Source: Psilocybe cubensis
Taxonomy: Eukaryota
Assembly (NCBI GenBank): GCA_017499595.2
Contig: CM039001.1
Span: 372,001 to 436,000, forward strand
DNA length: 64,000 bases
Reading direction: 5' to 3'
The notes under the pieces were generated by a model. The model saw nothing but the letters and a program-made list of their open reading frames with translations, was not told the origin of the DNA and searched no databases. The position numbers and the translations under genes were made by a program. This document shows positions 18,951-26,252 of this stretch, in pieces (position 1 is the first letter of the stretch; the number at the start of each line of letters is the position of its first letter).

Positions 18951-21900
18951 ATGGTGGAGATGCTTTCCAGGAATACGATGATTGAGGGCGATTCTCAAAG
19001 TTCTCAATACACGACTACGACCGACAGTACTATCCCTGGACCAGGTGCATTGGGAGGCAAAGCAATAAAGGCCCTGGGCAAGTTAACGATACGAGGTATC
19101 GATCGGGTGATTATCAATGCGCGCCTACGATCGATCACTTCGAAGTTCCCTCATAGCAATGAGCAAGCACTTGGAATCAAAGGTATTAGGGAGATGTACA
19201 ACGTTATTCTAGAGCTTTGCAGGTGAATATTATTTACATCTACATATTGATCTATACCTTACTGTACTCTTTTCTTAGGTCGGGCATGTATAACGACGAA
19301 TTAAGAGCGAAAGCACTTCAACTCCTCGTCGTTCAAATCAAACAAGGACAAGTACAACTCCTTGTAGAAGCTTTGGCAAGATGGCACCTTATTGAATTGG
19401 AACTTCTTCTGCCTGAAATTGTGGACATTATAATACCTTACCGGTACGCACATTCAATATCTTCACCCCTTGATAGAGAGAGACTCATACAAAGTGTACT
19501 AGGCGACAACCTTGGGGCCGAAACAGGCTCGCTCCAGAAATCCGCGATCATGTCCTCTGTGATCTTACGATCGTTAGACATCCTTCAAAAACTCAGCTAC
19601 GACTGCAAAAAGTTATCGACGAGGCCAAAGATCAAGACCAAGCACTTCGTACTGCTTACAGCCAATACTTCGACCCCGTGTTATCCTTTTTATCGCAAGT
19701 TGCAGCAATCAACACCAATACATGCAAAACGGTCCTTCAAGCTGGATTTTTGGATCTCCTGTTGTTGGTACAAAAAGGCAAGCTAGAGTATGAAAAGACT
19801 TCCGAAATATGCAAAGTTTTCCTGAGGCAAGTAGTCTGATTTGATTTTTTTTGTTTGAAGTTTTAAGAAAGTTAGAAAATTGACACCTTGTCAACAGTCA
19901 ACCCAAACTCGTTACACCTGCAGTAGAAGAAAAGATCTTAAATGTGGTCCTGAACGAGATACTCAATGGCCGAATTAATCACGTCATTGAAGCATTATCA
20001 AAGTGGAATATCGGTGACTTGAAGTCTTTGGTCATGCAACTGCAAGCAAATACTCCAATGTAAGGAAACGTTTATCAAACACAGTACAGCCACCGAGTTC
20101 CTGACACGTTTCTTTTAGAAGCCGTGTTCTGCTTCGACACATTGGACAACCTTCTCCACTCGAACAAAACATCACCTTTTTGTTCCGAATCGTTGAGTTG
20201 GGGAAACCTCACCTTCATATTGTTCTCGATGCCGGGTTTTTGGACATGATACCCACGGCACATGAAAACAAACTGAGAATCAATGATAACAGGTTAATCT
20301 CAATCATTTTCGAAGTACTGAAGTACGTGTATGCCTGTTTATGTTGTCGCCAAACTGATGTCGCCTTCTAGATCTAACTCTGGGTTGAAAGACCATCGAC
20401 CCAAAGCACTCGATATACTCATTCGCTACATAATCGAGCGTAAAACGACTCACATCCTTTCCATGCTATCCAGATGGGGCCACAAAGATCGCGAAGATGT
20501 GATCGTCGCCGTTTTTCAACGCGCCGGACCAGTGGGCTTTGGAACAGAAGGGCCATTTGGCCCAAGGAAACAGGTCTTTCACAGTCGAGATGGGTTGTAC
20601 CATTTTGACCAGGACAAAGTAATTTCTGTCATGATATTCGCTGGAGAAGTGGCTAGTCTGAGTGATGGCGCCTTTCATGCTGTCGTCAACGCAGGGATGC
20701 TTGACGCCCTTTTAGTCATACAATCGCACGACCTATCAGTTCATAGGCTTGATGAACCATACAATATCATTTTGGGAGTATTGAGGTACGCCATACGTTT
20801 CACAATGTTCATCATCGCCTACACGTTTGCTCAAGCCAACAGCAGATTAGGAGTCTTTGGAAATAAAATCCGCAAAAAAGCAATTGACCTGCTTGTTTTC
20901 CAAGTGTGTCGAGGCGAAGCTCGATACATGCTAAAGATCATGTCCAAGTGGAAACTCGACGAGCTAAACCGCTTGATTTGGGAGATTTCCGCGCAATTCC
21001 CCCCACTGAGGTATGGATGTTGTCCATGGAAATGTTTCGGTCAAGGCATTTTAACTGATATACATACAGCAATCGCCGTGCGCTGGAGGACCTTTTTTCC
21101 CGACCCCCTGAAACTCAATCACTTTCTACTCTGTATCTGCAGCGATTACTTTCCTTCTTGTCTGGGATTGCACAAATTAGCGAAGCCGCAAGTCAAGTCG
21201 TTTTCCAGACAGGGTTCATGGACCTGTTACTTGCCCTGCAAAAAGATAAAAGTGGCCAGAACGATTTTGAAGAGTTGGATGATCTGATTCTGAGCATTTT
21301 GCAGTACGTTTCGTAGCTTACGGCTTGTTACTTAGGTAAATTGACCTTTTCCTTTCAAAATCTTTCTAGGAAACCTCAATTATACGAAGATAAAACTAAG
21401 AAAAAAGCGATGGCCTATATATCTCTGCAGACTGAAAAAGAAGCAACGCATATGTATAAGGTTATTGGGAAGCGTAGCATATCAGAGCTGGAACTCATCA
21501 TAGCTGGGATGCTGGAACACTTCAATCTTGGAGGGTATGTTTTGTTTACAAAATCAGCAAAGCTCTGTTGTATTCTAATATGTATCTAGACGCCTTGCCT
21601 TGAACTCGTCTGCTCTTAGGGACCCTGCAATCGACCCAAAACATTTGGCGTCGCTCAACGCCTGCGTGATGATCTTTTCTAAAGTAATTCTAAAACATCG
21701 GTTTGCATTTCAGGCTCTCATCAACGCGGGCATCTTGGATCTCTTGCTTGCCATCCAATCTCGACAATGCAGCATAGATGGCATCAAACACATATATGAT
21801 ATCATACTCACCTCGGTGTATATGGAGAGCGTCAGCGACAAAGCTTTAAAAATTATCTCTTACCAGGTTATGAACCAGTCAACTTGTTTGCTGGAAACGC

Positions 21901-23056
21901 TGCAGCAATATGCGGACCAGGAGTTCCAAATCATAGCCCCTGTAGTGCTACAGGGCTTGAAGTACGTTTCTGACGATTTCTGAACACTGCTTACGTTTCT
22001 CATCGATATTTTGGCAGGAATGCACTTTCCGTGCATGAAGGACATATCACACCCTGTCCAGGACCGAACAAGAAATCGTTAACGAATTGCATCGTGTTCC
22101 TTCACAGACTTTCCACCATCAACACCGCCACATTTAACCATCTTCTGAACGCTGGGTTGGTCGATCTATTCCTCAAGATTGATCGGGTAGGAATACCTGT
22201 GGCCGCTCTCAATGACTTGTACTCCATGCTGCTTGAATATGCAAGGTACGAACCATTCTCTTTGGCAGTAGCTTGACCGGATACCAATTACTGTTTCACT
22301 AGGCCGAATGCATACGATCCTGATATCACCGCTCGTGTCCTCGATTATGTGAAGATCAGAGTAGAAACTGATAGATCGCACTTCTTCATGAGAGCGCTTG
22401 AAAGATTGGACCCCCCGATTCAGAACAACATCATAAAAGATCTAGTATATCGCTCTCGGGCGCTCTGGTGCGCCACCACAGGTTAAGATTAGTCTATAGA
22501 GTTTGCTAATTCATCTAACAGGTCGGGATGCCCTCCATCTTCACTCGGAAAAAAGAAATTAGGGGATATGTGGATCTCCTTTGTCCACTCAATTTCTGCG
22601 ATCTGTCGTCTAAGCTCATCAGCATGCCAAATCGTCCTTGAACAGGACATTCTCGATGCGCTCTACTTTATTTCCGAAAACGTAGAGCAGATGCCAGTAA
22701 CAAACCAGGTCGGTGTAGACAAAGTGGTCGTTCGTCGAGTCATCGATACTTTTCTTCTTGACGTCATCGCATATCCTGAGCACCGTGACACAGTTTTCCA
22801 CCATCCCGTTTATCCCCCATTACCAGAACCCAAGCGACCAGAAGCCAAAACGGTGTGCACAATACCCTCGGTCGAATGGGTGTCACAAATCGACATCGTC
22901 CTCATGTTTACAACCATCAAGACGAGTCAACAGTTCCAATACCTGTATTTCACATTACTGCCATGTGCGACAGTATGTTGGTCAATAATTTGGGTTTTTC
23001 TACTCGTAATGGAGCAAGGATCTTCCAGCAAAATAGTTGGCGTGGAATTAAATTGA
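18951..23056 (+). CDS. Uncharacterised alpha-helical tandem-repeat protein (13 exons, roughly 1100 aa, ~7 repeats)
   Basis: One continuous reading frame can be rebuilt through 12 introns. The N-terminus carries a TIPGPGALGGKAIKALG motif, followed by recurring KA(L/I)..L...I....(W) and AG(F/M/I/L)LD(L)LL blocks. The exact C-terminus is uncertain. Confidence 0.75.
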
Positions 23057-23189
23057 TCTTTTACAATATTTTGTATTCATCGTTCGTACGGCGTACAGGG
23101 ACAATGTTACATAATTTTTAGTCAGATGCGAGCACTGCAGAAGTTCGTCAGTAACAAGATCCAAGAGTCACTTAGAAAAAGTAAAAAGA

Positions 23190-23276
23190 AAGTTCAGACA
23201 AAAAATATAATGATTCCGGATAGACGTGATTCCTCATGAATATCAGTTGAGGGAGTCTGTATTGTCATCACAGATG
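23190..23276 (-). ncRNA. Intronic box C/D snoRNA, SNORD100 (HBII-429)/plant snoR30-like, predicted 18S rRNA 2'-O-methylation guide
   Basis: On the - strand: box C GTGATGA (23271-23265), guide CAGACTCCCTCAA, D' CTGA (23246-23243), C'-like ATGAGGA (23237-23231) and D CTGA (23197-23194). It lies inside the intron 23316-23135 (GTTAGT...TACTGAC...CTGCAG). The guide is complementary to the conserved 18S segment GAGGGAGCCTG with one mismatch. Confidence 0.8.
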
Positions 23277-23317
23277 GCGATGGTAGAAAGGGGATAAAGA
23301 GGACTATTACACTAACC

Positions 23318-23815
23318 TTAGCGGTTCTTGAAGTAGTCGAGGAGAACGTGGAGGCCCTCAGACTCAACACCGTACTCCTTAACGACAACACAGCTGCATC
23401 CGACGACCTTTCTTGGGTTGCCTTCACGGTCAATCTTGCAGAGACCAGCCCAGGTACCGAGGACTTTAGCATCTCCGACCTTGATGAGGTTGATCTTGTG
23501 CTCAGCGCAGAGAGCCTCAATGAGCTTGATGTACTCGGCTTCGGTGCAAGTCTCAACGAGCACGCAGAGATGGGCCTGGCGCTTGTCAAGAGCTTTAGCG
23601 CACTCGCGGAGGCCACGAGCGAGACCGTCGTGGACGAGAGCGTTCTTCAGAACTTGCTGCAGATGAAAGGCGTGAGACATCTCAAGACAGACGGTCTACA
23701 CAAGATAACCTACTTGAAGGGCATCCTCAACAGAAAGTTTGCCTTTGGGGGCCTCGGTGGAAACCTCGACCTCAGCGGCGACCTCGACAGGAATGTCATC
23801 TCCAGCGTCAGACAT
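23318..23815 (-). CDS. RPS12: 40S ribosomal protein S12 (eS12)
   Basis: [12 protein letters not shown]...[32 protein letters not shown]...[22 protein letters not shown]...FKNR*. There is one coding intron, a probable 5' UTR intron and a 3' UTR intron. Confidence 0.98.
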
Positions 23816-24086
23816 CCTATTAAAACCAGGTCAGATCCTAGTCATTCTGAATATTCCTGCGCACCAACTTTTGTTGTTATAAATGCTTTAAAGGTTTACA
23901 AGAAGTTGTGGATGTCTTCGTCCGCTTTCGTTGATGTGAGGAAAAAATAAGGTTTCTGTGGGCGGGTTATACTAAAAGGTTTCAATCTCAGTTCGGAATT
24001 TGCCGACGTTCCTCTCTCTTCTCTGCTCACCGTCTCAGACGACCCCGACGCGTATATCAACTTTGACGCGCCTTGTAAAATAAAAT

Positions 24087-25377: not shown

Positions 25378-26252
25378 ACACCACCCGTCCGCTAACATAC
25401 TATACCTCGTTTGACCTAATGCTCTTGAACTCGTTATTTCCGACGCTTCAAGCTGTGCTAGAACGATGCACGCAGAAACTGTTATCGTAATACAATGATT
25501 CGTGGATGCACACCCAATAGTAATGAATTGGTCCAGATTTCTGAAACCCTCTCCCAATTCAGAAAATCTCGCGCTATTTCGTATGAGGTTGGAGCTAGTG
25601 CACAACTCGAAGATCTGGGTTTTGTTTATCTTGACTACAGCATGAAGACTTCCACGAATCCAACACGGTAAAACATCTTGTGGCGTTGCATTTCTCTCGA
25701 TAACGTTCGCGGGTTGAGATTTCCGTGGTCATTTTTTCGAATGGGTGAAACAAGGCCACCAGTCAACGAGATGTAAAACATGTTGCTGAAAAGATGAAAA
25801 AACAATGATGTTTGTCGGTGTGTGTTGTAGAACTTGGGGGGCCCTATCTTGTACTGTTATCCAAGAGCTTCATTTGCTTCCGTCGCTACACGGGGACAAT
25901 GATTCCAAGGACACGATGCCTATTTAAGTAACTGAGCATGTCATACAGAATCTAACCCTGTCTATCAGCAACCAGTTACTCGACAAAGATATCGATGTGG
26001 CTAGAACGTACTGTTCACGGCATTATGGACAGCTATTTACGTAGTAAGCATTCAATTTCTCTTTGTATTGAAGAAAAGCAGTGTTTTCCCAAAAATAAAC
26101 TATTGACTTCCATTGTGCTTCAATTTGTGCTTTAAAATGGAAGTGTGGCGGAAGCATGGGATAGAAAGAAAAACTTCAATACAGCGGTCTTCTGATTATG
26201 TGGCGGGAGCTACAGGTAGTATGTCTCGGAATGTGATAGCTCTAGCCACAAA

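Follow-up and report, generated by a model that had tools for sequence, protein, structure and literature searches.

A predicted box C/D snoRNA for the SNORD100 site of 18S rRNA in a 3' UTR intron of the ribosomal protein eS12 gene of Psilocybe cubensis

On its minus strand, a stretch of 64,000 nucleotides (nt) of Psilocybe cubensis DNA (contig CM039001.1, positions 372,001 to 436,000; referred to here as the window, in the numbering of which all coordinates are given) carries a four-exon gene for the ribosomal protein eS12 (RPS12), and the 182-nt intron in the 3' untranslated region (UTR) of this gene almost certainly holds a genuine, conserved, intron-encoded small nucleolar RNA (snoRNA) of the box C/D class. 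Overall, we put a probability of about 0.8 on the reading that an RNA of ~85 nt arises from this spliced intron and acts as a guide for the same site in 18S ribosomal RNA (rRNA) as SNORD100, the snoRNA that is found in RPS12 of animals.

The predicted snoRNA and its spliced host intron

All of the motifs that the initial annotation had recognized in the intron are indeed present on the minus strand, where box C, the guide, D', C' and box D can be read. Box C, of the RUGAUGA class, lies near the 5' end and box D near the 3' end of the predicted RNA, and between them are an internal D' and C', which in relatives are degenerate (CGGA/CCGA and UGAAGA/UGGGGA, respectively), as is usual for these two boxes. 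From 5' to 3', the elements are separated by CAAUACA (box C to guide), AA (guide to D'), UAUUCA (D' to C'), AUCAC and GUCUA (C' to the accessory element) and a U-rich run (accessory element to box D); from box D it is 46 nt to the branch-point A and 59 nt to the 3' splice site. The parts are given below with the support for each, in which R1 is a covariance model and A1 an alignment of the element, both taken up in the next section.

23190..23275, minus strand: predicted mature box C/D snoRNA of ~85 nt, with predicted ends (R1 match; Rfam SNORD100 match)
23265..23270, minus strand: box C, UGAUGA (sequence; GAUGA columns at least 90% conserved in 56 distinct sequences)
23249..23257, minus strand: D' guide core GACUCCCUC, the C at 23251 being the fifth nt upstream of D' (invariant in 56/56)
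23243..23246, minus strand: box D', CUGA, replaced by CGGA/CCGA in some relatives (sequence; A1)
23231..23236, minus strand: box C', UGAGGA, with a non-canonical G as in the Rfam SNORD100 consensus (sequence; A1)
23222..23225, minus strand: GUCU, nearly invariant, which may pair internally with AGAC at 23258-23255 (RNAalifold)
23211..23220, minus strand: putative accessory ('extra base-pairing') element UCCGGAAUCA (complementary to 18S GAUUCCGGA; its CCGGAAUCA invariant in 56/56)
23194..23197, minus strand: box D, CUGA (invariant in 56/56)

The internal pairing listed above is that of alignment columns 19-22 with 74-77 (AGAC/GUCU) by RNAalifold; in this candidate helix of 4 base pairs (bp), a change on both sides is seen only in the related locus L080 (relatives are designated here by L numbers), while one pair is disrupted in L069 and one in L080. 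Between D' and C' (A1 columns 35-61), a short hairpin is present in most relatives, with paired substitutions in the stem (e.g., GGAUUCGUCC vs GAAUCCGUUC; judged by eye), and the D'-C' spacer of the window, consisting only of UAUUCA, resembles the 6-nt spacer of the Rfam SNORD100 consensus. No second copy of the snoRNA was detected by R1 in the window or in any eS12 locus examined.

Evidence for splicing came from the contigs of four public runs (X1, X2, X3 and X22) placed on 22950-23950. In one contig each of X2 and X3, which belong to one study and one organism code and the library type of which was guessed as RNA, position 23134 is joined to 23317, i.e., 182 nt with GT..AG ends (CT..AC on the plus strand) are skipped. 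The same X2 and X3 contigs also lack 23657-23713 (57 nt) and 23817-23868 (52 nt), and since three GT..AG introns are thus missing from them, they can derive only from complementary DNA (cDNA). X22, a DNA-like run, is collinear with the window across the snoRNA intron. X1, a metatranscriptome of another study, contains the 57-nt joint only; the match of one of its contigs stops exactly at 23317 with 15 further letters unplaced, which was not counted as evidence, nor was the missing cover of RNA contigs inside the intron taken alone as such. The 182-nt 3' UTR intron is real. It was indeed found to have the properties first ascribed to it, beginning 1 nt after the stop codon TAA and containing the branch point TACTGAC and the acceptor CTGCAG, and the splicing that had been expected is seen as the removal of 23316-23135 in the X2 and X3 contigs; the boundary first given as 23317 was one base too far, as 23317 is exonic. 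The proposed excess in length, about three times the local norm, also holds, the intron being ~3.3 times as long as the two other introns of the gene (57 and 52 nt). Among relatives, alignment of the cDNA-like locus L022 with the genomic loci L012 and L007 shows an offset of 222-225 nt where the predicted introns are 222 and 219 nt long, which suggests that the snoRNA intron is spliced in the L022 lineage as well. The layout of the gene, in the order of transcription, is as follows.

23869..23921, minus strand: eS12 exon 1 (5' UTR), with no ATG inside (spliced X2 and X3 contigs; the upper end is the limit of the RNA contigs, not a mapped start)
23817..23868, minus strand: 5' UTR intron, 52 nt, GT..AG, ending 1 nt before the ATG (joint 23815->23868, cut +1, in X2 and X3)
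23714..23816, minus strand: eS12 exon 2, start codon ATG at 23815-23813 (MSDAGDD...EDALQ) (translation; contig joints)
23657..23713, minus strand: intron of the coding region, 57 nt (joint 23656->23714 in X1, X2 and X3)
23317..23656, minus strand: eS12 exon 3, 112 codons, stop codon TAA at 23320-23318 and one base of 3' UTR (PF01248; 99% identity)
23135..23316, minus strand: 3' UTR intron, 182 nt, GTTAGT...TACTGAC...CTGCAG, host of the snoRNA (joint 23134->23317 in X2 and X3)
23147..23153, minus strand: branch-point-like TACTGAC, with its A at 23148 (sequence; the neighboring acceptor is confirmed by a contig joint)
22950..23134, minus strand: eS12 exon 4 (3' UTR), continuing past the stretch examined (X2 contig piece joined to 23317)

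The assignment of the host to RPS12, made at the outset, is borne out by the peptide of exon 3 (112 residues), which matches the Pfam family Ribosomal_L7Ae/L30e/S12e (PF01248) with an E-value (E) of 7.6e-26; a search of a large protein collection retrieved 2136 relatives at E<=1e-20. Closest among the named proteins are 40S S12 sequences of agaricomycetes, those of Tephrocybe and Meripilus being 99% and that of Hebeloma 98% identical. Further long frames of the window encode Nup188, a Dicer-like protein and SAP18, and these, together with the agaricomycete-like eS12, identify the window as nuclear DNA of an agaricomycete fungus. The coding region of eS12 is bracketed by UTR introns, one of which lies one base from the start codon and the other one base from the stop codon. 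Many database models of eS12 from agaricomycetes and metagenomes are 160-177 residues long, as against ~146-148, and it may be that gene callers are misled into such long models by UTR introns directly adjoining the start and stop codons.

Conservation in related eS12 loci and the position of the intron

Metagenome contigs were scanned with the exon-3 protein, and the best 80 of 201 relatives, at 86-100% identity, were kept. A strict pattern (TGATGA..CTCCCTC..CTGA) was found in only 8/80 loci; this pattern misses copies that differ at the first U of box C or at the second base of D', both of which are variable, and two-block motifs and the covariance model R1 were used in its place. The two blocks (GAYTCCCTC and CCGGAATC) were present within 450 nt after the stop codon in 70 of the 80 loci. 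R1 matched the window at 23188-23276 with 88 bits, the window itself being part of the model, and it also revealed the snoRNA in L035, which is outside the model (40.1 bits, E 3e-7). In all, the snoRNA was found directly past the stop codon in 71 of 74 informative genomic eS12 loci. The informative set excludes the cDNA-like L013, L022, L029 and L047, as well as L025 and L038, the contigs of which end 46 and 2 nt after the stop codon, respectively; L013, L022, L029, L047 and L038 were called cDNA-like on account of the in-frame fusion of exon 2 to exon 3, in an inspection that covered the ten loci without the two blocks and three control loci. Many of the loci are near-duplicates, and A1 therefore comprises 56 distinct sequences, including the window. 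The exon-3 peptides of carriers are 100% identical to named proteins of Tephrocybe, Hebeloma, Suillus and Leucoagaricus, and that of the carrier L080 is 99.1% identical to a protein of Ceraceosorus and 94.5% to one of Pseudozyma, both Ustilaginomycotina. Judged by the nearest named protein, the snoRNA arrangement appears to span two subphyla of Basidiomycota, the L080 contig ending before any acceptor.

The conservation of boxes and guide in related RPS12 loci, which had been anticipated from the single sequence, is pronounced and unevenly distributed. All 56 sequences of A1 are identical in the guide GACUCCCUC, in the CCGGAAUCA of the accessory block, in box D and at the C, G and A of D', and the spacing of guide and D' is constant, with zero gaps between them. 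Mean pairwise identity is 1.00 for the guide and for box D, and 0.96 for each of box C, the accessory block and GUCUA; it is 0.32 in the 5' flank, 0.42 in the 3' flank, 0.14 in the D'-C' spacer and 0.47 in the 13-15 nt before box D, and 0.465 at the fourfold-degenerate sites of the adjacent exon. This pattern indicates that selection acts on exactly those parts that are needed by a methylation guide. It also bears directly on the most trivial explanation, that box-like motifs have clustered by chance in an unusually long intron and have no function. C/D boxes are short, the Rfam score of the element is sub-threshold (see below) and the intron has no significant fold, all of which would suit such an accident; against it, the guide, accessory block and box D have remained invariant in 56 sequences while flanks and fourfold sites diverged, and the element is present in 71 of the 74 informative loci. 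Chance assembly of the motifs is refuted by these conservation data, and we consider its probability to be practically nil.

Several individual loci deserve description. L035 (2830-3025) has an extra coding intron two codons before the stop codon and a snoRNA intron that starts 14 nt past it, and of all full copies its snoRNA diverges most (40 bits with R1). In L044, which has no R1 match and no recognizable boxes, a guide-like CGCUCCCUCGAACUGA lies ~115 nt after the stop codon and is perhaps a remnant; L071 has a donor-like GTGAGG/GTAAAT right after the stop codon, yet no snoRNA. In the cDNA-like L029 (492-577), the 3' UTR right after TAAAG opens in the middle of the guide (ACCCCCUCGACUGA...), and guide, accessory block and box D all carry changes in this copy; the explanation is either use of a cryptic ...CAG acceptor within the snoRNA or decay of the copy.

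The position of the host intron is conserved along with its content. In the 60 distinct relatives that have a recognizable donor, 0-42 nt (median 1 nt) separate it from the stop codon. The span from box C to box D is 69-90 nt among relatives, and the distance from box D to the heuristically predicted 3' splice site has a median of 57 nt, as compared to the 59 nt to the verified acceptor of the window. The predicted donor is GC rather than GT in L049-L069 (Leucoagaricus-like) and in L030/L031 (Suillus-like), reading TAAG/GCAAGT and TGAG/GCGAGT, with the slash at the exon end; this suggests GC-AG introns in the Leucoagaricus-like loci and in one Suillus-like group. In nonsense-mediated mRNA decay (NMD), exon junctions downstream of the stop codon follow a 50-55-nt rule. 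The conserved donor position is consistent with avoidance of NMD, since the intron begins 0-1 nt past the stop codon in most relatives and the terminating ribosome should still be able to reach the exon-junction complex, such that splicing would not trigger decay.

The predicted 18S target and the accessory pairing

For the target, prokaryote genome records were scanned with a 23-nt 18S motif, which returned at least 53 contigs (L081-L133) of bacterial or archaeal assemblies; all five of five tested are SSU_rRNA_eukarya, by which measure these contigs are contaminants. The same motif had 0 matches in the viral contigs scanned. Among the matches listed, 45 contigs had enough flank and represent 24 distinct contexts, all of which read ...(GGGUUC)GAUUCCGGAGAGGGAGCCUGAGAAA..., the motif being the selection criterion; by construction of the scan, all 45 contain GAUUCCGGAGAGGGAGCCUGAGA. 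On both 18S sequences tested (L103 and L124), the best duplex of the D' guide is AGAGGGAGCCUGA, at -17.8 kcal/mol, composed of 7 contiguous bp, one A.C mismatch and 3 bp, and therewith shorter than the usual guide of ~10+ nt. In this duplex, the first G of GGG in GAGGGAGCC of these other eukaryotes' 18S is opposite the fifth nt upstream of D', and the register that the initial annotation had deduced, with a C five nt before D' opposite the same G as in SNORD100, holds on them. The predicted site of 2'-O-methylation is the first G of GGG in 18S GGAGAGGGAGCC, and it is quite probable that the RNA guides methylation of this, the SNORD100 site. The accompanying statement that S. cerevisiae does not methylate this position agrees with the table of PMC3511168, where no yeast entry is given.

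The second conserved block is complementary to the same region of 18S. UCCGGAAUCA can pair with GAUUCCGGA, the nine 18S nt immediately 5' of the guide target, and the complement of the invariant CCGGAAUCA, GAUUCCGG(A), directly precedes GAGGGAG in all 45 motif-selected contexts; by our own estimate, an invariant 8-mer would have its complement directly next to the target by chance with a probability on the order of 1e-4. When the accessory block was offered L103, RNAduplex picked CGAUUCCGGAGAGGG, the adjacent site (-17.6). Together, guide and accessory block would cover ~19 of 20 consecutive nt of 18S. The alternative role for the 3' half, a second guide in the 15 nt before box D, was rejected, because 157 and 183 of 200 shuffled sequences bind 18S as well as these 15 nt do and the bases before box D vary between relatives. 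The sequences thus identify the conserved 3' half as a putative accessory element that pairs beside the target, not as a D guide.

Such elements are known. In the available text of PMC3116282, extra base-pairing is described as conserved non-guide elements complementary to rRNA beside the methylation site, is most striking in snoRNAs with short guides, and raises methylation up to five-fold in yeast; HBII-429, i.e., SNORD100, is named there among the human snoRNAs with conserved extra base-pairing, a likeness to the fungal RNA. As in the cases of that paper, the rRNA-complementary element here does not adjoin D or D', and its 9-nt block abuts, on the rRNA, a guide of 7+3 bp. The two 18S segments are exactly contiguous here and make up ~20 nt together, as read from sequence alone.

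In the mechanism that we propose, the ~85-nt snoRNA would be released from the spliced 3' UTR intron of the eS12 gene, and its D' guide (GACUCCCUC, followed by two nt and CUGA) would pair with 18S GAGGGAG(C)CUG. Fibrillarin would then 2'-O-methylate the first G of GGG, opposite the fifth nt upstream of D', while the accessory UCCGGAAUCA, too far from box D to guide, would pair with 18S GAUUCCGGA beside the target. Residence in a ribosomal protein gene would couple the output of the snoRNA to ribosome synthesis.

Relation to SNORD100, descent and significance

At curated thresholds, Rfam gave no match anywhere in the window. In E-value mode with 7 kb searched, SNORD100 (RF00609) came out on top (24.4 bits, E 0.13), and with the intron alone it led the 4227 families at 24.4 bits and E 0.0034, ahead of a runner-up with 17.7 bits (E 1.7). 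Of the Rfam relationship first proposed, what stood is that SNORD100 is the top C/D match; what did not is a score at the level of the family, 24.4 bits being below the gathering score of 58, and the fungal RNA fails RF00609 membership by Rfam's own criterion. Among 20 carrier loci tested, SNORD100 matched 11, at 21.1-26.7 bits, and the other nine yielded nothing at E<=10. Two further matches in the window, both with E within 3-9, were taken as chance, namely sn2991 (21235-21305, plus strand), which lies inside a long open frame, and Afu_191 (25515-25620, plus strand).

The likeness to SNORD100/HBII-429 extends over several features. The two RNAs have in common the D' guide core CUCCCUC and the same predicted target (human 18S Gm436), the C' sequence UGAGGA, box C and the A-rich bases that follow it, the register of D' and the overall size; both reside in an intron of RPS12, and the copy in the window also shares the short D'-C' spacer. 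The differences are equally distinct. The fungal guide is flanked by AGA where SNORD100 has GG, which results in the A.C mismatch and 7 contiguous pairs, as compared to 10 for the consensus GGCUCCCUCU. The 3' half reads GUCUAUCCGGAAUCAUUAUA in the fungal RNA vs cuGCCaUGUuACCCAAuuUa in the SNORD100 consensus, and because the 3' halves differ, any accessory pairing of SNORD100 must use another segment of 18S. Finally, the fungal host intron is in the 3' UTR, 1 nt past the stop codon, whereas animal SNORD100 is in the coding region.

SNORD100 is an expressed snoRNA that resides in RPS12 of animals ranging from sponges to vertebrates, those that have lost many introns excepted, according to the available text of PMC3412847, and the RPS12 introns of animals carry phases in a figure legend of the same paper and are therefore coding-region introns. 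In the tables of PMC3511168, the Arabidopsis sites 18S Gm390 (AtsnoR30, RF00046) and Gm391 (AtsnoR58) are equated with human Gm436 (HBII-429/SNORD100), RF00046 and RF00609 are joined in clan CL00073, and no yeast counterpart is listed; by this listed target rather than by sequence comparison, plant snoR30 (RF00046) and AtsnoR58 have the same predicted site as the fungal RNA. Unlike the fungal RNA, rice snoR30 resides in a host gene group other than RPS12 (ENSG00000142541; Table 2 of PMC3511168). Among filamentous fungi, short intron-encoded C/D snoRNAs are the rule, and most C/D genes of N. crassa are intronic (PMC2780460); the snoRNAs of this species resemble the fungal RNA in being intron-encoded, but the 18S-Gm entries of its catalogue are 1122, 1423 (twice) and 559, with no guide for this G (PMC2780460). 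In the main text of 'The fungal snoRNAome' (PMC5824354), as far as available, SNORD100, RPS12 and snoR30 are unmentioned, and no description of this fungal RNA was found in the papers searched on SNORD100/HBII-429, RPS12 and fungal snoRNAs.

A number of observations weigh against the reading of the element as an intron-encoded guide for the SNORD100 site, and are gathered here. With regard to the RNA itself, there is no terminal stem, the flanks of boxes C and D having no complementarity in the window or in A1; this is compatible with the class, since many intronic snoRNAs have no terminal stem. Folding of the whole intron is no stronger than that of shuffled sequences (z -0.76), some relatives have CGGA or CCGA at D', conservation of box C does not extend to its first U, and the genomic loci L044, L054 and L071 are devoid of the snoRNA by R1 and inspection. 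The splicing data consist of assembled contigs, which are unable to show a small RNA, and X2 and X3 share one study. With regard to the target, the 18S sequences used are motif-selected contaminant contigs of other eukaryotes rather than the rRNA of this fungus; the guide duplex has only 7 contiguous bp, and the guide alone is weakly specific because 6 of 200 shuffled guides bind some 18S site equally well. On L124 there is an alternative 8-bp pairing of the guide, and the best duplex of the accessory block lies at another site. With regard to the family, the SNORD100 score of the window is 24.4 bits against a gathering threshold of 58, the relatives being likewise far below it; the match (23278-23223) comprises box C, guide, D' and C' only, with the 3' half of the model skipped, and in a full-length alignment of L051 to the SNORD100 consensus, the region from C' to box D shares only U-rich positions.

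A different reading of the conserved blocks is that they form a cis-regulatory element of the RPS12 pre-mRNA, e.g., a kink-turn or rRNA mimic through which eS12 regulates itself, and not a trans-acting snoRNA. eS12 belongs to the L7Ae/L30e/S12e family, some members of which bind kink-turns, and L30 autoregulates its own pre-mRNA; moreover, the element is always within eS12's own transcript, and the 3' UTR of L029, which begins mid-guide after ...CAG, implies that it can affect the choice of splice site. Nonetheless, the invariant blocks are what a guide requires, i.e., boxes C and D, a fixed D' spacing and two adjacent 18S complements, the element has no conserved secondary structure beyond the 4-bp candidate helix, and its animal counterpart in RPS12 is an expressed snoRNA (PMC3412847, available text). 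We regard the cis-regulatory explanation as very improbable.

With the element read as a box C/D guide, the question of its descent can be addressed. The fungal RNA is predicted to be the functional equivalent of SNORD100/snoR30, and it probably shares ancestry with them as a divergent member of the clan. Alternatively, it could be a working C/D guide for the 18S site that is unrelated by descent to SNORD100, having arisen or been retargeted in Basidiomycota, with the RPS12 host a coincidence of the preference of snoRNAs for highly expressed ribosomal protein genes. Such an origin would explain why the similarity is confined to the functionally constrained boxes and guide and stays below the Rfam threshold, and why the 3' half, accessory element included, is unlike the Rfam consensus. 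It would also suit the location of the fungal host intron in the 3' UTR vs the coding-region introns of animals (PMC3412847, figure legend), the different host gene group of rice snoR30 (PMC3511168, Table 2), and the statement in the available text of PMC3511168 that no intronic snoRNA position is conserved across supergroups, mobility being stressed there; the N. crassa catalogue, with no guide for the site (PMC2780460), means that vertical descent requires losses in Ascomycota. It fits less well with the combination in one RNA of the same target nt, the use of D', the non-canonical C' UGAGGA and the same host gene, and with the fact that the clan, as tabulated in PMC3511168, already joins plant and human guides for the site, so that vertical descent would lead one to expect a member in fungi as well. 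Given ~80 ribosomal protein genes and further hosts besides, arrival in the same host by chance would be unlikely for any one family. Taking both sides into account, we consider the unrelated origin unlikely.

Common descent of the RNA does not by itself make its residence in RPS12 ancestral. Since the rice clan member is in another host gene group, which we take to be RPL13A from its identifier ENSG00000142541, the RPS12 link is opisthokont-wide at most. That the association was already present in the ancestor of fungi and animals is a tentative proposition: it would be more than a billion years old, with retention in Basidiomycota and Metazoa and loss in the ascomycete models, a history that we find conceivable but doubtful. 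Under it, either the snoRNA would have moved between RPS12 introns, or the intron would have slid to just past the stop codon.

The finding predicts a ribose methylation of basidiomycete 18S rRNA and names its guide, at a site for which S. cerevisiae has none and N. crassa no listed guide, and it would supply the missing fungal member of a snoRNA clan described in plants and animals. The pairing scheme, if correct, would show in a natural RNA how contiguous accessory pairing can support a very short guide. The 3' UTR intron, which most relatives keep within 1-2 nt of the stop codon, is a good system for the study of exon-junction-dependent NMD rules in fungi. More generally, RPS12 presents a surveyable case of whether a snoRNA can stay with one host gene across kingdoms; if true, the ancient link would be, to our knowledge, the first case of a snoRNA and its host gene shown to have stayed associated in both fungi and animals, and a counter-example to the view that intronic snoRNA locations are short-lived.

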